This document shows, one piece after another, positions 26,502-35,144 of a DNA stretch of 64,000 bases (within the stretch, counting starts at the first letter, position 1; every line of letters begins with the position of its first letter). This DNA comes from Pseudomonadota bacterium (GTDB lineage Bacteria > Pseudomonadota > Gammaproteobacteria > Burkholderiales > JAKAFK01): positions 7,136-71,135 of the forward strand of contig JAKAFK010000003.1 of NCBI GenBank assembly GCA_021817985.1, given 5' to 3'. Below the pieces are notes generated by a model. It did no database searches. It was given only the letters and a program-made list of their open reading frames with translations, and was not told the origin of the DNA. The translations under genes and the position numbers were made by a program.

Positions 26502-26635
26502 GAAAAAACCGATGCGCCTCGCGCCCAGCACGCAGAACCCGCGCCTGACCCAGGCCAAGCCGCCTTGCACCGCATGCCCGCGGCTTCGCGGCTGCGTTGA
26601 TTTTCTCGATTCCCCTCATCCGTTCGGAGCGGTTC

Positions 26636-27025
26636 ATGGCCGATAAGAATATCAAGTTTCTGATTGTCGACGATTTCTCGACGATGCGGCGCATCGTGCG
26701 CAATCTGCTGAAGGAACTGGGATTCAACAACGCCGACGAGGCGGAGGACGGTGTCGCCGCCTTGCACAAGCTCCGCGGCGGCGGCTTCGAGTTCGTGGTC
26801 AGCGATTGGAACATGCCGAACATGACCGGCCTCGAACTCCTCAAGTCCATCCGGGCCGATGCCGCGCTGAAGCATCTGCCGGTGCTCATGATCACGGCCG
26901 AGGCGAAAAAGGAGAACATCATCGAGGCCGCGCAGGCCGGTGCCAGCGGCTACATCGTCAAGCCATTCACTGCCGCGACGCTCGAAGAAAAACTGAACAA
27001 GATCTTCGAGAAGGTCGGCAAGTGA
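26636..27025 (+). CDS. cheY: Chemotaxis response regulator CheY
   Basis: [33 protein letters not shown]. Confidence 0.97.
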
Positions 27026-27233
27026 CGCGCCTACCCGCAGGCACGTCGAAGGGGCCCGGTTTGAGCGGACGGCCAATCCCGCGCGCGCGCGGCGGCCCCC
27101 TCGGCCGCGGCACCGCCGAATGGGAACGTTTCATGGAGCACAAGAAGGACAGCGGCGCGATGCATCTCATAACCTATCCACCGGATTCGTTGGAGTCTCT
27201 CGCGTTGGGCAACGATAAGAAAAGGAGATCAAT

Positions 27234-27956
27234 GTGAGCAGCGAGAACGGGGACTCCACAGAACTGGAAGCGCTGTTTGACAGCATCGTCGATGCCGCGC
27301 ACGCGCCCTCGACGGAGGAAGCGCCGCCCGCGAAAGCGGCGCCTTCGGACACGCCTGAATTGGTCTATGAGCGGCTCGGGCACATGACCCGCCAGCTGCA
27401 CAACATGCTGCGCGAGCTCGGCTACGAGGAAAAGCTGCAGGAAGCGGCGCAGTATATTCCCGACGCACGCGACCGCTTGAACTACATTGCCGTGCTCACC
27501 GAGCAGGCCGCCGAACGCGCCCTCAACGCGACCGATGCCGCCAAGCCTTTGCAGGATCAGCTGTCCGCCGAGGCGACCGTGCTGGGAAGCGAATGGAAGC
27601 GCCTGTTCGATCGCGCCTTGAGCGTCGACGAGTTCAAGAAGCTGGTCGGCAAGACCCGCGACTATTTGGCGGGGGTTCCGGAGAAGACCCGCGCCACCAA
27701 CGAGCAGCTCACCGAGATCATGATGGCGCAGGATTTCCAGGATCTGACGGGACAGGTGATCAAGAAGACCATCGAGATGGCCCAGCAGCTGGAGCAGGGC
27801 CTGGTCCAGCTGTTGCTCATGACCACGCCGGCGGAGAAACGGACCGAAGTCGACCAAGGCCTCCTCAATGGCCCCGTCATCAATTCGGAAGGCCGCGCCG
27901 ACGTAGTCACGAATCAGGCGCAGGTGGACGACTTGCTCGAGAGCCTGGGATTCTAG
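27234..27956 (+). CDS. cheZ: CheY-P phosphatase CheZ
   Basis: PDARDRLNYI, EIMMAQDFQDLTGQVI, QAQVDDLLESLGF. Confidence 0.97.
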   Translation: MSSENGDSTELEALFDSIVDAAHAPSTEEAPPAKAAPSDTPELVYERLGHMTRQLHNMLRELGYEEKLQEAAQYIPDARDRLNYIAVLTEQAAERALNATDAAKPLQDQLSAEATVLGSEWKRLFDRALSVDEFKKLVGKTRDYLAGVPEKTRATNEQLTEIMMAQDFQDLTGQVIKKTIEMAQQLEQGLVQLLLMTTPAEKRTEVDQGLLNGPVINSEGRADVVTNQAQVDDLLESLGF

Positions 27957-28008
27957 GCCTCGCGACTGGCGCAAGCTCATCGCTTAATAGCTGATAGGGA
28001 AGCCGAGA

Positions 28009-29817
28009 ATGAGTGAATTTGGCGAGATGGAAGAGCTGCTGCAAGATTTCTTGCTGGAGGCCAACGAGCTGTTGTCGGAAGTCGACAACAAGCTGGTCGA
28101 GCTCGAGAAACGCCCCAACGATACGGCGCTGCTCCACGATATTTTCCGTGGCTTTCACACCATCAAGGGCGGGGCGGGCTTCCTCAACGTGCATGAGCTC
28201 GTGGCGCTATGTCACCGCACGGAAAGCCTGTTCGACAAGCTGCGCAACGGCCAGCTCAAGCTGACGCCGGAAATCATGGACACCATCATGGCGGCCACCG
28301 GGGTGGTGCGCGACATGTTCCAGGACTTGAGCGGACGCCAAATGCCCGGGCCTGCCCAAAAGCATCTGCTGGACGCCCTCGATGCCGCCATCGCCGGCCA
28401 GGCGCCCGCCGTCGCGCCAAAAGCCGCAGCCCCCGCCCGGCAGGCGGCGGCACCCGCCCCAGGCAGCGGACCCGACTGGAACGTCCTCTACCATGCCCTG
28501 CTCGGCGACGAGCCGACGCAGCCTTCCGCACCCCCTCCCGAGCCGGCCGCCGCTCCAGAAATATCCGAGCCCGCAGCCGCCTCCCCTGCGCGCCTGCCCG
28601 CCGTGCACAACCAGCCGGCCCCCAAGGAAACGACCATCCGGATCGACACCGAGCGCCTCGATCAGGTCCTTAATCTCTCCGGCGAAATCGGTCTGACCAA
28701 GAACCGCCTGACGTGCTTGCGCGCCGATATCCTGCAGGGCAAGAGCGACGGCGAAACGCTGCGAGCGTTGGATGAAGCGGTCAACCAGCTTGACCTTCTG
28801 GTCGGCGATCTGCAAAACGCGGTGATGAAGACGCGCATGCAGCCGATCGGGCGGCTCTTTCAGAAATATCCGCGGCTGGCGCGCGATCTCGCCCGTCAAC
28901 TGGGCAAGGACGTGGAACTCGTCATTTCCGGCGAAGAGACGGAACTCGACAAGACGATGATCGAGGATCTCAACGACCCGCTCGTCCACTTGGTGCGCAA
29001 CGCCGTCGACCACGGCATCGAAGATCGGGCGGAGCGCGAGGTCGCGGGCAAGCCCTCGAAGAGCGTCATCCGCCTTTCCGCGACGCAGATCGGGGACCAT
29101 ATCATCATCGAGATTTCGGACGATGGGAAGGGCATGCGGCCGGAAGTCATTCGCCAGAAGGCCGTCGAGAAGGGGATCATCGAAGCGGATACGGCCAATA
29201 CGCTCGACGATCGCCAAAGCTTGAATCTGATCTTCCTGCCGGGGTTCTCGACCAAGGACACCATCTCGAACGTCTCCGGACGGGGCGTCGGAATGGATGT
29301 CGTGAAGACCAACATCTCTCGCCTCAACGGCCGCATCGACGTGGTCTCGGTGCCCGGGGAAGGCAGCACCTTCACCATCTCCTTGCCGTTGACCCTGGCG
29401 ATCCTGCCGGTCCTGGTCGTGGGCCTGGGGCGCCAGCCCTTCGCCATCCCGCTGTCGCTGGTGAGGGAGATCATCCCGATCGACCCGCAGACGGTGCAGC
29501 GCGTTTCGGGCCGTGCAACGCTCGTGGTGCGCGAAGAGGTGCTGCCGATCCGCACGCTCGCCAGCCTGATCGGCTGGCCCGAGCAGGGTCCCGCGGCATA
29601 CGGCGTGCTCATGCAGTGCGGCGATACTGCGTTCGTCCTGGCCATCGACAACTTCATCGGGCGCGACGATGTCGTCATCAAGCCCCTGCTCGACATCAAG
29701 CCGAAGGGGATCGCAGGCGCAACGCTGTCGGGCGACGGGGCCATCGTGCTGGTGCTCGACATGGAGGAATTGCTCGCGGCCGGGGCCTCGTCAGGCGCCC
29801 AGGCCGCCTTCGCCTGA
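28009..29817 (+). CDS. cheA: Chemotaxis histidine kinase CheA (602 aa, apparently without a folded P2 domain)
   Basis: HPT IFRGFHTIKGG, TIRIDTERLD, HLVRNAVDHGIE, SGRGVGMDVV, LPLTLAI, C-terminal CheW domain. Confidence 0.96.
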   Translation: MSEFGEMEELLQDFLLEANELLSEVDNKLVELEKRPNDTALLHDIFRGFHTIKGGAGFLNVHELVALCHRTESLFDKLRNGQLKLTPEIMDTIMAATGVVRDMFQDLSGRQMPGPAQKHLLDALDAAIAGQAPAVAPKAAAPARQAAAPAPGSGPDWNVLYHALLGDEPTQPSAPPPEPAAAPEISEPAAASPARLPAVHNQPAPKETTIRIDTERLDQVLNLSGEIGLTKNRLTCLRADILQGKSDGETLRALDEAVNQLDLLVGDLQNAVMKTRMQPIGRLFQKYPRLARDLARQLGKDVELVISGEETELDKTMIEDLNDPLVHLVRNAVDHGIEDRAEREVAGKPSKSVIRLSATQIGDHIIIEISDDGKGMRPEVIRQKAVEKGIIEADTANTLDDRQSLNLIFLPGFSTKDTISNVSGRGVGMDVVKTNISRLNGRIDVVSVPGEGSTFTISLPLTLAILPVLVVGLGRQPFAIPLSLVREIIPIDPQTVQRVSGRATLVVREEVLPIRTLASLIGWPEQGPAAYGVLMQCGDTAFVLAIDNFIGRDDVVIKPLLDIKPKGIAGATLSGDGAIVLVLDMEELLAAGASSGAQAAFA

Positions 29818-29999
29818 TGGGGGCAGATGAATAACAACGACAAGCTTGCGGAAAACGGGGCCCCTCCCGGAAGCGTGGGAGAGGCCGCGGAGCCGAGATA
29901 AGGGCTGCCTTGCGTCCGTCGGCGGTCGCCATGACGCCGAGTTCGTGCAAGGCCGCTGCGGCGCCTTTCGTCAACATCGATTATTCGGAATGCAACGCC

Positions 30000-31217
30000 A
30001 TGCACGAGCATGCCTACATTGGTCGCCAGCCGATCCTGGATCGCAACCAGCGCATCATCGGCTATGAGCTGCTGTTCCGGCACCACGCCACAGCCACCAC
30101 GGCGGAGGTCACCGACGACCTCTCCGCCGGCACACAAGTCATGATCAACACCCTCAGCAATCTGGGCACCGAGTGGCTCCTCGGCGACAAGATGGCCTTC
30201 ATCAACATTGCCGAGCCCATGATGCAAAGCGACTTCCTCGAGTTGCTGCCGCCCGAGCGCGTCGTGCTGGAAATCCTCGAAAGCGTGGCGTTCACGCCCG
30301 AACTCTTCGAGCGGGCCAAGGCATTGCGCGCACAGGGGTTCAAGCTGGCCCTCGACGACTATGTCCCCGGCCCCGATACGGCCGACTGGCTGGACGTGGC
30401 CGATTTCGTCAAGCTCGACGTCCAGGACCTGGGCCCCGCCCGAACGGCGGAAATGGTCACCCTGCTGCGCCGGCACAAAGCCAAGCTGGTCGCCGAAAAG
30501 GTCGAAACGCACGGCGAGTTCAAGGCCTGCAAGAACCTCGGATTCGATTACTTCCAAGGATTCTATTTCGCGCGTCCTGAGACGCTTGCCGCCAAGGTCC
30601 TGAATCCCGCCCATGCCAATGTGCTGCAACTCCTGAACCAGGTACGCAACAATGCCGACGTGAAGGACATCGAGACCGCCTTCAAGCGCGACGTGGCGCT
30701 TGCCTTCAAGCTGCTGCGCTACATCAACTCGGTGGGTTTCGGCCTGTCGTGCGAGATCCAGTCGATCCGGCACGCCGTGGCCATCTTAGGCTACCAGCAG
30801 CTCTATCGGTGGCTGACGCTCCTGCTGGTGACCGCCGAGACCTCCGACGCCACCCCGCCCGCCCTGATGAAGACGGCCATCACCCGCGGGCGCCTGACGG
30901 AACTTCTGGGCCAGCCGTTCTTCGAGCGGCAGGACCGCGACAACTTGTTCATCGTCGGCGTCTTTTCCCTGCTCGACGCGATGCTTGAGATGCCGATGGA
31001 CAGCGTGCTCGAGAAGCTTTTGCTGCCGGAGACGATCCAGGACGCGTTGCTGACCCGCTCCGGCATGTACGGCCCCTTCCTCGGACTGGCGGAGGCATGC
31101 GAAGGCGCTCAGGAAGACGAGATCAACGCGATTGCCGAATCCTTGTCCCTCGAACCCGATGCCGTCAACCAGGCGCACATGGAGGCGCTGGCTTGGGTCG
31201 AAACGCTGGGGGTCTGA
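30000..31217 (+). CDS. EAL-HDOD domain protein (putative c-di-GMP phosphodiesterase, YuxH/CdgJ-like)
   Basis: IGRQPI..GYELLFR, LALDDY, VKLD, LVAEKVET, FQGFYF, then HDOD KRDVALAFKLLRYINS. Confidence 0.88.
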   Translation: MHEHAYIGRQPILDRNQRIIGYELLFRHHATATTAEVTDDLSAGTQVMINTLSNLGTEWLLGDKMAFINIAEPMMQSDFLELLPPERVVLEILESVAFTPELFERAKALRAQGFKLALDDYVPGPDTADWLDVADFVKLDVQDLGPARTAEMVTLLRRHKAKLVAEKVETHGEFKACKNLGFDYFQGFYFARPETLAAKVLNPAHANVLQLLNQVRNNADVKDIETAFKRDVALAFKLLRYINSVGFGLSCEIQSIRHAVAILGYQQLYRWLTLLLVTAETSDATPPALMKTAITRGRLTELLGQPFFERQDRDNLFIVGVFSLLDAMLEMPMDSVLEKLLLPETIQDALLTRSGMYGPFLGLAEACEGAQEDEINAIAESLSLEPDAVNQAHMEALAWVETLGV

Positions 31218-31223
31218 CGGCGG

Positions 31224-31676
31224 TCAGAGAAACTCGGGCGCGAGCACCAGTCGGAGCAGGGTCTGGGCCTCGTTGTCCCGGACGCGATAGGTGAGCCACC
31301 AGACGCCCGCCTTCTTGACGCCCCAGGGGGCCGCCGCGCCGGCGAGAACGAGGGAAGCCACCTCGCCGAGGGTGGGCTGATGGCCCACGACGACGACCGC
31401 CCCCTTGGCCTTGGGCCACCCTGCCGCCTTGAGGATTTCGGCAGGTCCGGCGCCCGGGCCCAGCTCAGGCCGGGTCTCGATGGGCCGCTTGAGCGCGAGC
31501 GCGGTCTCCTGCGCACGACGCGCGGGGCTGACAAGGATGCTCACCGGGACGGGCAGCCTGGGCGCCAGCCAGCGCGCCATGGCCGCCGCCTGCGCACGGC
31601 CCTTGTCGGATAGGGCGCGCTCCATATCGGGAACGCCGTCTTGCGCTTCGGCATGACGCCATAGGATCAAATCCAT
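31224..31676 (-). CDS. sixA: Phosphohistidine phosphatase SixA
   Basis: MDLILWRHAEA, SPARRAQETA, VVGHQPTLG. Confidence 0.88.
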   Translation of the reverse strand: MDLILWRHAEAQDGVPDMERALSDKGRAQAAAMARWLAPRLPVPVSILVSPARRAQETALALKRPIETRPELGPGAGPAEILKAAGWPKAKGAVVVVGHQPTLGEVASLVLAGAAAPWGVKKAGVWWLTYRVRDNEAQTLLRLVLAPEFL

Positions 31677-31680
31677 CGAA

Positions 31681-31910
31681 CCGTTCCTAATCCATCGGCG
31701 ATAATCAGTTGATGGGTCACCACGGGACATCTTCCCCGCAGTCGCAGCCCGAACAGTGCTGGCTGCTCGCGTGCCGGAGTTGCGCCGGCAGGCCCCGGTG
31801 AGCGCCCGATGCGAGGGACTCTGGAGACTGTTTTTCCAGAGGCCGCAAAGGCGCCGGTTCCCCTCGGCGCACTCCTATGCGAGTGTGAGGGATCCCGGAC
31901 CGGGAACGCG
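31681..31910 (-). ncRNA. Predicted omegaRNA/reRNA scaffold of element 1, overlapping the tnpB 3' end
   Basis: Stems at 31692-31715, 31744-31766, 31772-31790, 31819-31841 plus possible long-range CGTTCC/GGAACG pairing; position at the right end is where TnpB guide RNAs are encoded. Confidence 0.55.
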
Positions 31911-33672
31911 CTACATGCGGCGCTCTCATCACCGAGCGGATCGAGGACCATTGTGACCACACGGGCTTCGCGCGATTCCTTGCAGGTAGCGCAAAGGCGA
32001 CGTGGCCACCGTCGCGGCACGGCGATAACGCCGCACGCGCCTCGGGGGAGGTTTTGGCCTCCGATCCTTCCGGTGTTGAATTCGTTTGCGTCTTGCTTTT
32101 CTTCTTGCGCCTGAGTGGCATGGTATAGATGCCTCCTGCGCTCTTGTTCGCTTGCCGAAGCCGCTCGGCAAAGCCCAGCCCGCGCCGGGCAATGGCCATC
32201 GCGGCGGCCTGGTGCACGCTTAGCCCGAGGGGTTGGGCGTGATTCACGGCGCCGATGACCGAGGTATACGCCGGATTGACTTCCAGCACCTCGACGCCGG
32301 CACGATGGCAGGCCGCATCCAGCATCGCAAGGGCCTTACCGTAGGCAAAGCTGGAGAGCATGCGGGCGTGCCGCGGGTTGCTCCCTTCGAGATCGCTTTT
32401 CTTCTTGCCAAAGTCCAGCCTCTCGTGCACGACCGGCACACCATGGGTGCGGGCGATCCCCGCAATCTCCTTAACGGAGTCCCCCATCATCGCTTCGACC
32501 TGCTCGGACGATTTTCCGTAGGTTGGCACGTCGAAGCGCACACTGTCGACCCAGTTGCCGAAGCGATCGATCCGGGTCACCGCGAGATGATCCGCATTGA
32601 TGTCGATGCCCAGGGCGCCAGCCAGCTTGGAAGTTGTCGCCGTGGCGGTTTCCACGGCAAGGCTTGCGAACACCCGCCAGCCCTTTCCGTCGCGCATGAA
32701 GCGGTAGCTGATCGCGGTTCCGGTGCGCTTCATGACGGGCTGCCCCGTCTTCGTGAGACCCTCTATCCGGCACGACGCATTCAGGGCTTCGACGATCTTC
32801 TCGTGCCCATAGGCAAAGCGCACGCCCGGGACTTCGACATGGCTGCCGTGCGGGGGCAGGAGGCATCTCGGCAGGCGCACACGCAAGGTCAGGGAGCCAT
32901 CCGTGGCCCGTGTGGCCACGCAGCCCTGGCACCCCGCCGTCTCGTCCTTGCTTCCCAGGACGAGGAACTGAGAGGAGCGCGCCGCGCGCCAATCCACAAG
33001 CCAGGCATCCCGGCCGGCTGCAGCAAGTTCCTCCTGGCGGCGGGTGCGCCCTGACTCTTCAAGGAGGGCGCTCGCGGCATCCCATTGAGCGCCATCGACA
33101 TAGCCGTTCGCCACGAGATCGAACTGGGCGCGAAAGAGCCTCTTCGAACCGAAGCACAGGCGGATGGCGCCCGCCTCGTGATCGTTCTTGAGGTTACCGA
33201 GGCGATCTTCCCTTGTTTTGAGCCGGCGCTTCTTCTGGTGCAGCTTGTGTGCGGCTTTGGCAATGGCGCGCCGGCGCTCGGACTCGCTCATCGGCTTGAC
33301 CGCGCGTCCGGATTTGAAGGCAACCAAGGGGTCTTGCAGGTCCTGAAGGCGCTGTTCGATCTTGCCGATTGTCTTCTTGGCCCGGCCAATGCGTGCCTCC
33401 GCTTCGAGAATAAGATCCGGGCGGCGCTTCCTGATCGAATCGATCTTCCCGTCCAAGCCGATCTTGATGGCGTTGTACTGCCGGGCGGTGAGGCCAAACT
33501 CCTGGAGAAAATCGCGCTTGAGGGTATTGGTGTCGCGGCCATCGGCTTGCCTTGCGGCGAAGAGGCTACGCTCCGCGCGCCCGAACAGCGCCGCGTAGGC
33601 AGCCAGCGCCGCATCGACCGCCGGATCTGGCTCAAGGCGCGTTTGGTAGGTGAATGTCTTTGCGTCAGGCAT
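31717..33672 (-). CDS. tnpB: Large TnpB-related RuvC protein (651 aa), no Zn finger, RuvC-III His
   Basis: TYQTRL N-terminus, LCFGSKRLF, GSKDETAGCQ, RuvC-I LGIDINADH, RuvC-II VVHERLDF, VNPAYTSVIG, SVHQAAAMAIARRG; ATG overlaps tnpA stop. Confidence 0.85.
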   Translation of the reverse strand: MPDAKTFTYQTRLEPDPAVDAALAAYAALFGRAERSLFAARQADGRDTNTLKRDFLQEFGLTARQYNAIKIGLDGKIDSIRKRRPDLILEAEARIGRAKKTIGKIEQRLQDLQDPLVAFKSGRAVKPMSESERRRAIAKAAHKLHQKKRRLKTREDRLGNLKNDHEAGAIRLCFGSKRLFRAQFDLVANGYVDGAQWDAASALLEESGRTRRQEELAAAGRDAWLVDWRAARSSQFLVLGSKDETAGCQGCVATRATDGSLTLRVRLPRCLLPPHGSHVEVPGVRFAYGHEKIVEALNASCRIEGLTKTGQPVMKRTGTAISYRFMRDGKGWRVFASLAVETATATTSKLAGALGIDINADHLAVTRIDRFGNWVDSVRFDVPTYGKSSEQVEAMMGDSVKEIAGIARTHGVPVVHERLDFGKKKSDLEGSNPRHARMLSSFAYGKALAMLDAACHRAGVEVLEVNPAYTSVIGAVNHAQPLGLSVHQAAAMAIARRGLGFAERLRQANKSAGGIYTMPLRRKKKSKTQTNSTPEGSEAKTSPEARAALSPCRDGGHVAFALPARNRAKPVWSQWSSIRSVMRAPHVARSRSGIPHTRIGVRRGEPAPLRPLEKQSPESLASGAHRGLPAQLRHASSQHCSGCDCGEDVPW

Positions 33673-34164
33673 CGCTGGTAATGGCGTCGACTGCCTTCCG
33701 GGCCTTGTTCCGGGCCGACCGGCGCCCATGCAGGCGGGCACAGAAGGAGGTGAGCACTTCAATTTCGGCACCGAAGCGCATCAGGCGGTCGCGGTGCTCC
33801 ACGACGATGGCGGTGACCGCCGGGTCGGAGAGCAGCTTCATCAGCCTGGGCCTGTGACCATTGAGCCCGGAGCCGACTTCGGCTGCGGTGCGCACGACCA
33901 CGAGGCGCTGCGATGCCGCATGCGCAGCCAGCCGCCAAGCCGCGCGTCAAGGTCGTTCTTCTGGTCGGAAGACGACACCTGGGCATAAAGCGCCGCGCCG
34001 CCCGCCGGCGAGGCTTGATCGTCCAGCGTGACGAATACCGCGCCAGTCGGCGTCTGAAACGCCGGCACGGGCAGATTGCCGTCGTGCCACCATTTCCATG
34101 CCGTTTGGTAATGGACCCCCATCAGCACAGCCCATTCCTTCAGCTTCAGCGGCTTCGTTGTCAT
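33665..34164 (-). pseudogene. tnpA: IS607 serine transposase TnpA, frameshifted and internally deleted
   Basis: N-half KEWAVLMGVHYQTAWKWW..ALYAQVSSSDQKNDL; frameshift near 33932-33937; C-half EVGSGLNG..IVVEHRDRLMRFGAE/IEVLTSFCARLHGRRS lacks about 32 aa relative to the tnpA at 53575. Confidence 0.9.
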
Positions 34165-34252
34165 ACTGAATACAGCATAGCCGACCTATGCCAATTGCAA
34201 CTGACTTATTACGAACCTGCTAGAATCCCACTCCGCGCGTGAGCGACAGGGC

Positions 34253-34846
34253 CTACCAGCCGTGGCCGCGAATCTTCTCGAGCCAGAATAGGCCGATGAC
34301 GGTCTTGGTTTCCGAGATCCTGCCCGTGCGCACCCATTCCATGGCCTCTTCTTGCGACACTCGGAAGCTCTCGACGAACTCGTCCTCGTCCGGACGGGCA
34401 CCCTCGAAGGAAAGCCCTGTCGCCAGAAAGAACTCCAGCCGCTCGTCGGAGTATCCGATGCACGGATGGATGCGGGTCAGCCGGCGCCAATGGCCGGCCG
34501 AATAACCGGTCTCTTCCAGGAGCTCGCGCCGTGCACAGGCGTCGGGCGACTCATGGGCTTCGAGCTTGCCGGCGGGAAACTCGTAGAAGACGCGCCGCAG
34601 CGGATAGCGGTATTGCCGCTCGAGCAGCACATCGCCGTTGTCGAACACGGGCAGGCACACCACGGCGCCCGGGTGCACGATGTATTCGCGGGTCGCTTCA
34701 TGGCCGTTGGGAAGGCGCACCCGATCTTCCCGAACGTGGAGAAGCCGTCCATGATAGACCGTCCGCGAGGCGAGCTCCGACTCGCTCAGATCCGTTCCGT
34801 GCGCGGCCCCTCCATCGGGCTCGCCCGGGGTCGGCTCATCACTCAC
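34253..34846 (-). CDS. NUDIX hydrolase (ADP-ribose pyrophosphatase-like)
   Basis: Nudix box FPAGKLEAHESPDACARRELLEETGY; REYIVHPGAV; GTG start overlapping DUF2818 stop. Confidence 0.9.
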   Translation of the reverse strand: MSDEPTPGEPDGGAAHGTDLSESELASRTVYHGRLLHVREDRVRLPNGHEATREYIVHPGAVVCLPVFDNGDVLLERQYRYPLRRVFYEFPAGKLEAHESPDACARRELLEETGYSAGHWRRLTRIHPCIGYSDERLEFFLATGLSFEGARPDEDEFVESFRVSQEEAMEWVRTGRISETKTVIGLFWLEKIRGHGW

Positions 34847-35144
34847 CGGCGCGTCGTCGCCACAGATAACGGTAGACGAAGCCCGGGTAGGCGAACACCA
34901 GAAACAGGCAGGCAGTGACCACATAGAAGATCCATTGCTGCTTCGCCACGGCGCCTAGCTGCGCCTCAAGCAGACGGGCGACCCCGCCCACGACGAAATA
35001 CAGGGCCACCAGTTCGAGGAGTCGCCAGCCCAGCGCCTTGCGGCCCGAGCGCGGGCGACGAACGAAAAACACGCGTTCATTGAAGAACGGTAGGTTGGCG
35101 GCGAAAAGCGCCAGGGCCAGCAGCAAGGTGGTATTAGAGCTCAT
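34839..35144 (-). CDS. DUF2818 family membrane protein
   Basis: AANLPFFNER, WRLLELVALY, FAYPGFVYRYLW; usual position after nuoN in Betaproteobacteria. Confidence 0.85.
   Translation of the reverse strand: MSSNTTLLLALALFAANLPFFNERVFFVRRPRSGRKALGWRLLELVALYFVVGGVARLLEAQLGAVAKQQWIFYVVTACLFLVFAYPGFVYRYLWRRRAGE

Follow-up and report, generated by a model that had tools for sequence, protein, structure and literature searches.

When the end of a transposon carries the best-placed Shine-Dalgarno (SD)-like motif in front of a host gene, has that motif been selected for the benefit of the gene, or does it lie there by accident of position? The question is raised by a 64,000-nucleotide (nt) stretch of contig JAKAFK010000003.1 from a Pseudomonadota bacterium (assembly GCA_021817985.1), hereafter the window, in which a 2,535-bp element with an open reading frame (ORF) for a TnpB-like protein separates a NUDIX hydrolase gene from a sixA-like histidine phosphatase gene. 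An earlier interpretation made from the letters alone (the sequence-only reading) proposed that the right end of the element supplies the ribosome-binding site (RBS) of sixA and that the resulting dependence could favour retention of the element. We consider a simpler account probable, namely that an IS607-family insertion sequence entered the NUDIX-sixA spacer at a GG dinucleotide, lost its transposase gene tnpA but kept the TnpB-like ORF together with an RNA scaffold, and that its AGGA motif came to be placed before sixA by accident. All locus coordinates refer to the minus strand and are given as positions in the window.

The insertion and the empty arrangement

Read 5' to 3', the locus consists of nuo genes, a small ORF, the NUDIX gene, a 35-nt spacer, the element, the tetranucleotide TTCG and the sixA-like gene. 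The element is oriented the same way as the NUDIX and sixA genes, and its right end lies 4 nt 5' of the sixA ATG. The gene upstream of the insertion (34253..34924, stop codon 34255-34253) encodes a NudE-like NUDIX hydrolase that matches Pfam NUDIX (PF00293) with 58.8 bits and the NCBIfam NudE model with 76.6 bits, the latter below the cut-off of 169 bits; it is 89% identical at the nucleotide level to its counterpart in G001, a genome of the same genus. The left flank (34218..34252) represents 35 nt of the original NUDIX-sixA spacer and ends in ...TCTAGCA directly 5' of the GG core. Junctions and homology to other copies place the element at 34217-31681. Its left end (34165..34217) opens with the GG core (34217-34216) followed by TTCG; it also includes TAATAAGTCAGTTG (34211-34198), which in inverted orientation matches CAACTGATTAT of the right end imperfectly. 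The right end reads ...GATTAGGAACGG and stops at 31681, after which come TTCG and the sixA ATG (31676-31674).

The hexamer GGTTCG is found at both the left junction (34217-34212) and the right junction (31682-31677), and when the flanks are joined by coordinates, the NUDIX stop and the sixA ATG are separated by exactly 41 nt. GG is the core expected for IS607 recombination. On the repeated hexamer, the 41-nt rebuilt spacer and the presence of AGGA 8 nt before the ATG, the coordinates agree with the sequence-only reading.

That reading had also called for the empty arrangement to be sought in relatives, and it is present in G001 as a NUDIX stop, 40 nt without any element, and a sixA ATG. Among the 40 relatives searched (including the unpublished genome G027), G001 is the only one with NUDIX next to sixA; the other relatives were rejected as empty-site comparators, G001 alone having sixA beside NUDIX among the loci examined (L006-L016). 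The comparison supports the insertion and its place. The spacer has diverged between the window (...CTGGGGGACACC-ATG) and G001 (...CTAGCAGGTTCG-ATG), for which reason the exact joint is unconfirmed base by base. Relatives of the TnpB-like protein were found neither in G001 nor in the other 39 genomes, which leaves one positive genome of 41, that of the window itself. Four DNA sequencing runs from one study, kept as contigs, contain the filled allele only and no joint across the element; this is no evidence that the empty allele is absent, because contigs drop rare variants. No RNA run was found that contains the region. Exact matching of metagenome contigs to a 22-nt stretch of the left flank and to a 26-nt stretch of sixA returned 0 matches each.

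Identity of the element and decay of its transposase gene

The host genome (184 contigs) contains two further traces of the element. A full second copy on contig C136 has 77-83% identity to the window copy and an intact tnpA of 195 amino acids (aa), which scores 196.5 bits against NF033518, the IS607 family transposase model (cut-off 110). The second trace is a solo right-end fragment of 86 nt on contig C32, 97% identical to the window copy. The right end can be fixed at 31681 because homology to both of these copies stops there. In the window and on C136 alike, tnpA is followed by tnpB on the same strand. Judged by the junction sequences together with the transposase of the sister copy, the element is an insertion sequence of the IS607 family; it has a GG core at each junction and lies within the NUDIX-sixA spacer, as the earlier interpretation had it.

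The transposase gene of the window copy (33665..34164), which aligns to the intact IS607-type serine recombinase gene of C136 with 83% nucleotide identity, has lost 1 nt near 33934 and a block of 87 nt at 33764/33765, and what is left of it reaches 21.7 bits against the Resolvase model, below the 23.3-bit cut-off. By this alignment it is a pseudogene. Since tnpA is broken and the element cannot excise itself, it will stay in place without any selection acting through sixA. The claim that dependence of sixA favours retention is therefore superfluous: with two deletions in the transposase gene, no selection is needed. The TnpB-like ORF contains no lesion as against two in tnpA, and the probability that both of two lesions fall in tnpA by length is (588/2544)^2, or about 0.05; the intact ORF beside the decayed transposase gene is suggestive, weak evidence to which we attach little weight.

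Both additional copies show peculiarities of their own. On C32 (locus L004, minus strand, approximately 1586-1492) the last 9 nt of the fragment are duplicated (...CAGGAACGG CAGGAACGG...) and the rest of the element is missing, so that the fragment may be the remnant of an insertion into or beside an older right end. The TnpB-like ORF on C136 (L002) has two in-frame insertions, at 1519-1562 and 2720-2763, without counterpart in the window copy; the two are reverse complements of each other, with 44-nt arms 1157 nt apart, 84% complementarity and a perfect core of 22 nt, and this 22-mer has no other occurrence in the genome.

Ends and insertion motif across the family

We collected 183 related loci from reference genomes and kept 80 for the analysis of ends, from Betaproteobacteria, Gammaproteobacteria, Verrucomicrobia, Nitrospirota, Chlamydiota and others; in several of the genomes the elements are present in multiple copies. 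Of the 80 loci, 61 have a tail TTAGGA[A/G]CGG, allowing one mismatch, shortly 3' of the ORF, while several of the remaining 19 are cut by contig ends and two have matches only at unrelated places. The final GG of the right end is invariant in the aligned columns. The first base after it is a pyrimidine in all 60 distinct right flanks (T in 36, C in 24), the second is T in 30/60, and the fourth is a purine in 44/60.

Left ends were located with a weight matrix built from nine seeds. Of 49 loci scanned we retained 34, namely 31 scoring above 13 and three with lower scores that looked right, and dropped 15 with low scores, several of them without tnpA. The retained left ends begin with GG-TT(G/C), the family consensus being GG-TTGCCAACAGCTG. 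Outside the matrix, the base before the left GG is G in 33/34 loci and the one before that is a purine in 30/34. Taken from these alignments, the family insertion motif would be about RGGG|Y. The window site, C-A-GG|TTCG, fits the motif on the right and departs from it at both positions on the left. The target-adjacent motif (TAM) that the earlier interpretation placed within TAGCAGG is non-consensus at the most conserved position, because C-A replaces R-G before the core.

The family also helps to interpret the repeated GGTTCG. The copy on C136 likewise starts with GGTTCG and has GG at both ends, although its right flank is CGCAAG and its flanks are unrelated to those in the window. From this comparison, the left-junction TTCG is element sequence, namely the four bases with which the left end opens in the sub-lineage of these two copies, whereas TTCG after the right end is target flank that coincides with this opening, because C136 begins with the same hexamer and is nevertheless flanked by CGCAAG. 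Among 30 family loci with both ends defined, flank and left end agree over at least four bases in one (L065, which looks like a tandem copy), over three bases in one, and over two or fewer in 28. From the flank frequencies (T 36/60, T 30/60, C 7/60, G 24/60) a TTCG repeat would be expected by chance at about 0.014, and the repeat reflects either chance or a mild preference for targets resembling the left end. It blurs the crossover within 6 bp and leaves the rebuilt empty site unchanged. At L065, in a Chlamydiota metagenome-assembled genome (CAVQMM010000001.1), the right end is followed directly by TTGGCA, the six bases that open the left end in the family, and a second copy, L066, lies a few kb or less away, which suggests a tandem or head-to-tail arrangement.

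RNA scaffold and predicted guide

We aligned the 260 nt 5' of the right end from 36 family members and predicted a common structure with RNAalifold, which returned six helices with 24 pairs in total; compensatory changes occur at 21 of the pairs. The fraction of paired cells is 96.4%, compared to 74.8% in shuffled alignments, and the covariation score is 0.631, whereas shuffles give 0.212 (none of 500 reached the observed value) and displacing the pairing partners by 1-3 columns gives no more than 0.141. Prediction and scoring used one and the same alignment, which favours the score somewhat; the covariation is credible all the same, because many pair types occur per position (for example UA 13, GC 8, CG 6 and AU 3 at one pair) and such variety is hard to explain otherwise. 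Conservation of the right end stops at the GG. An omegaRNA-like scaffold that ends exactly at the transposon end is, on this comparative evidence, well supported for the element family.

The window copy retains 22 of the 24 pairs. Its consensus helices span 31923-31745, the predicted scaffold as a whole extending up to the right end (31681..31923) and overlapping about the last 68 codons of the TnpB-like ORF. In most family members the ORF likewise traverses the scaffold region and stops about 30-45 nt from the element end. Synonymous divergence between the window and C136 copies is 0.67 over codons 1-500 and 0.31 in the overlap, and the lower value fits double constraint, as expected. The single-sequence fold of 31930-31645 has a z-score of -1.71, too weak to inform, and an Rfam scan of 31000-35000 at E up to 1 gave 0 matches. 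The right-end tail TTAGGAACGG (31681..31690), an instance of the family motif, contains both AGGA (31688-31685) and the GG core (31682-31681) and presumably constitutes the scaffold-guide junction, a recombinase site, or both.

The conserved covarying scaffold reaches the right end, and a guide drawn from the flank 3' of it is therefore a reasonable prediction. By analogy with IS605/IS607 TnpB systems, the predicted guide segment is TTCGATGGATTTGATCCTAT (31661..31680), a 20-mer that includes the sixA start codon and occurs once in the genome. This part of the earlier proposal stands as a prediction, whereas the TAM attached to it, within TAGCAGG, falls off the family consensus.

The TnpB-like protein

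The intact ORF of 651 aa (31717..33672, stop TGA at 31719-31717) is identified as TnpB-like from profile matches, alignment and predicted fold. It scores 35.4 bits against NCBIfam TIGR01766, a TnpB-related domain (cut-off 32), and 46 bits against NF040570 guided_TnpB (cut-off 100); Pfam Cas12f1-like_TNB matches over profile positions 1-28 of 60 with 21.5 bits, below the 26.3-bit cut-off. The family comprises 1646 proteins at E of at most 0.001 among 8000 scored candidates, typically of about 542 aa, some of which carry the source label "IS200/IS605 family accessory protein TnpB-related protein". Across 22 aligned members the RuvC-I residue D357 and the RuvC-II residue E417 are invariant and the position of the RuvC-III Asp is occupied by an equally invariant H487 (22/22), so that the third residue departs from the canonical D-E-D triad. 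The same alignment places 14 residues, none of them Cys, between the AYTS and SVHQ motifs, and the C4 zinc finger is not present.

An AlphaFold2 model computed from the 22-sequence alignment has a mean predicted local distance difference test (pLDDT) value of 73 and has high confidence over residues 1-507. In a Foldseek search of the PDB it matches Cas12k, Cas12f and Cas12m best (E 4e-8 to 1e-7), and it also matches ISDra2 TnpB (8exa, E 1.3e-4). According to the model, the protein has the Cas12/TnpB fold. Altae-Tran et al. 2023 describe a clade, RIIIr-4, in which the RuvC-III Asp is mutated to His and the C4 zinc finger is absent (PMC10691335), and the ORF matches this published description, from which membership of the clade is predicted.

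Residues 508-651 (window 31717-32150) are conserved across the family, with the motifs GGHVTF..RNR.KHVW..AAH.AH and ..QHCS..DVPW, and coincide with the covarying RNA scaffold, the AAHVAH codons forming one helix. Part of the conservation of the C-terminal "protein" segment may reflect constraint on the RNA.

Expression of the sixA-like gene

The gene downstream of the element (31224..31676) is intact and encodes 150 aa with an N-terminal RH motif. The product scores 37.9 bits against Pfam His_Phos_1 (cut-off 21.7) and 54.2 bits against TIGR00249 sixA, below the cut-off of 74.5, and "sixA-like" is a safe name for this phosphatase gene. It is 91% identical in amino acid sequence to the G001 protein over residues 1-150, it is single copy in the genome, and the ratio of nonsynonymous to synonymous divergence (dN/dS) from G001 is 0.107, a value accumulated over the entire divergence of the two genomes, of which the time since insertion is only a part. 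The gene has probably stayed in use, to judge from these comparisons.

Of the SD-like motifs in the filled allele, AGGA (31688-31685) is placed best, 8 nt 5' of the sixA ATG. Duplex energies were computed with the anti-SD sequence ACCUCCUUA. The best site of the filled allele is AGGAACGGU, with -5.0 to -5.5 kcal/mol; for the rebuilt empty allele the best site lies 16 nt from the ATG, with -4.8 kcal/mol over the final 22 nt; the natural allele of G001 has GGGGGA 4 nt before the ATG and reaches -8.4 kcal/mol. As the sequence-only reading stated, the placing of AGGA is thus better than that of any site in the rebuilt empty allele. The motif was nonetheless not shaped for sixA, because the tail TTAGGA[A/G]CGG is conserved across phyla. 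We also considered that the family might target SD sites and restore them, and rejected this since insertions are not enriched before gene starts: a start codon of an ORF of at least 80 codons lies within 30 nt in 18 of 60 right flanks, compared to 2727 of 8534 control GGY sites in the same loci (32%). A literature search joining IS607, Shine-Dalgarno and right end found nothing.

On the minus strand between NUDIX and sixA no terminator-like site was detected, the one such site found lying upstream of NUDIX. The genes are co-oriented and neither a terminator-like nor a promoter-like site separates NUDIX from sixA; sixA would, for these reasons, most likely depend on read-through transcription entering from the element and the genes 5' of it.

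Weighing the explanations

The account that we prefer runs as follows. Serine recombination would have inserted the 2,535-bp element at GG in the short NUDIX-sixA spacer, and tnpA would later have been lost through a frameshift and the 87-nt deletion, while an open gene for a D-E-H, zinc-finger-less TnpB-like protein was kept, with an omegaRNA-like scaffold over its 3' end. The conserved tail would give sixA its AGGA by accident of position, translation probably starting at ATG 31676 with the help of this motif; any omegaRNA produced at the locus would have the first 16-20 nt of the sixA region for a guide, and the element would persist mainly through its inability to excise alone. Several observations weigh against this account. 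The sole empty allele is that of a relative whose flanking genes have diverged to about 90% identity, and the joint is good to a few bases. The left flank CAGG is off the family consensus RGGG, AGGA is a weak SD motif (about -5 kcal/mol) and the natural one of G001 is stronger, and a promoter scan of the region returned 0 sigma-70-like sites. The C-terminal 144 residues of the protein (508-651) are modelled with pLDDT below 50, and data on the activity of D-E-H TnpB proteins were not found in the portion of the literature covered by our search.

The spacing of 8 nt, which makes AGGA the best-placed motif of the filled allele, could also be taken to mean that the right end was selected as the sixA RBS, that dependence of sixA retains the element, and that TnpB-omegaRNA cuts the empty site using a TAM within TAGCAGG. 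The TnpB-like ORF free of lesions beside a tnpA with two, and the intact scaffold of the window copy, agree with this, and yet we regard it as distinctly unlikely: the tail is family-wide, insertions are not enriched before gene starts, retention needs no selection once tnpA is dead, CAGG departs from RGGG where G occupies 33/34 loci, the SD motif of G001 is stronger, and the two-lesion chance of about 0.05 is only weak evidence. It would take a very improbable combination for the tail UUAGGAACGG to be a portable outward RBS for whose transcript ribosome and TnpB-like protein compete, so that a phosphorelay phosphatase is placed under an immobilised D-E-H TnpB with an ORF kept open while tnpA decays; the SD motif and start codon of sixA would then lie in the scaffold-guide junction of the omegaRNA, and competition between ribosome and TnpB-like protein would follow if the tail doubles as an RBS. 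If, on the contrary, the insertion is polar, sixA would be poorly expressed or silent and would be intact through the short time elapsed or the sufficiency of low expression. The 2.5 kb between sixA and its former upstream genes, the want of a promoter-like site, an SD motif weaker than in G001, and the position of this motif and the start codon in or beside a structured, probably protein-bound RNA segment all speak for this; tnpA, however, had time for two disabling lesions and the 453-nt sixA has none, and the single copy and low dN/dS, the latter for the whole divergence from G001, make a polar effect unlikely.

Translation of sixA could instead begin at an in-frame ATG at 31730 inside the element, which would add 18 N-terminal residues and leave AGGA unused. 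The sixA frame is open back to 31730 (an ORF of 168 aa), and GGGGAAG directly 5' of that codon gives a duplex of -5.7 kcal/mol. The G-run, on the other hand, ends only 3 nt before the ATG, and the G001 protein, aligned over 1-150, begins with MDLILW; the short spacing and the conserved MDLILW start make this start unlikely, and with the codon lying within the TnpB-like ORF in another frame we give it a very small chance. Replacement of the RuvC-III Asp by His and loss of the zinc finger, together with a score under the guided_TnpB cut-off and a searched literature in which activity data were not found, raise the further question of whether the protein and its conserved RNA form a guide-dependent nuclease at all, or whether the protein is an inactive or repurposed RuvC-like one, with neither guide nor TAM at this locus. 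We think this rather unlikely, given that D, E and H are invariant in all 22 aligned sequences, that the elements are multi-copy in several genomes, that scaffold and transposon share exactly the same endpoint, as they do for omegaRNAs that have been studied, and that the base before GG is C at the right end and G in the left flank, as discrimination of self from non-self by a TAM would require. Residue conservation of this kind has been argued in PMC10691335 to imply activity.

Relation to known systems and significance

The ends of insertion sequences can alter the expression of adjacent genes, for example through outward or hybrid promoters. As with such insertion sequences, the transposon end at the present locus is predicted to offer an expression signal to the adjoining gene, although an SD-like motif would here take the place of a promoter element. 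ISDra2, by contrast with the element studied here, has a Y1 transposase and a TTGAT TAM. Its TnpB-omegaRNA complex (IS200/IS605; PDB 8exa) is similar in having the Cas12/TnpB fold and a structured RNA that overlaps the 3' part of the gene and stops at the right end of the transposon, but ISDra2 TnpB has a D-E-D active site, a zinc finger and about 400 aa.

The closest parallel in organization is the IStron of C. botulinum, also of the IS607 family, for which Zedaveinyte et al. (bioRxiv 10.1101/2023.11.20.567912) describe a strict GG plus upstream TG target (TGGG) that coincides with the predicted TAM. The similarities to that system, as far as it is described there, include a serine recombinase gene tnpA followed by tnpB on the same strand, a GG core at both junctions without target duplication, a G before the core (TGGG in the IStron, RGGG in the family studied here) that doubles as predicted TAM, and a guide RNA that overlaps the right end and takes its guide from the flank, which for our family is predicted from sequence. 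In contrast to the IStron, the present element has no group I intron, its TnpB-like protein is larger (542-651 aa in the family) with His for the RuvC-III Asp and no zinc finger, and tnpA is a pseudogene in the window copy. Clade RIIIr-4, as described in PMC10691335, shares the Asp to His replacement and the missing C4 zinc finger found in 22/22 family members here; members associated with ribbon-helix-helix (RHH)/MazE are mentioned in that paper, whereas the loci described here are IS607-type transposons.

An IS607-family element and a rearranged D-E-H TnpB are both of known kinds, and the insertion next to sixA is one ordinary event. The stakes at the locus itself are small, since the translation signals of one host gene have been replaced by a transposon end. 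More useful are the results at the level of the family, namely the sharp right end TTAGGA[A/G]CGG, the covarying scaffold and the RGGG|Y insertion motif, which allow a definite guide boundary and a TAM to be proposed for a clade that the sources searched treat as active by inference only. Descriptions of the tail, the motif and the scaffold for RIIIr-4 were not found in that same literature, but the supplementary information of PMC10691335, which is said to include alignments of scaffold-guide boundaries, may cover them.

Neighbouring genes

Downstream of sixA, the ORF list for 26597-31217 shows chemotaxis-type genes, with a CheY-like receiver, a CheZ-like ORF and a CheA-like kinase of 602 aa. 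The same interval contains an ORF of 435 aa that is convergent with sixA.

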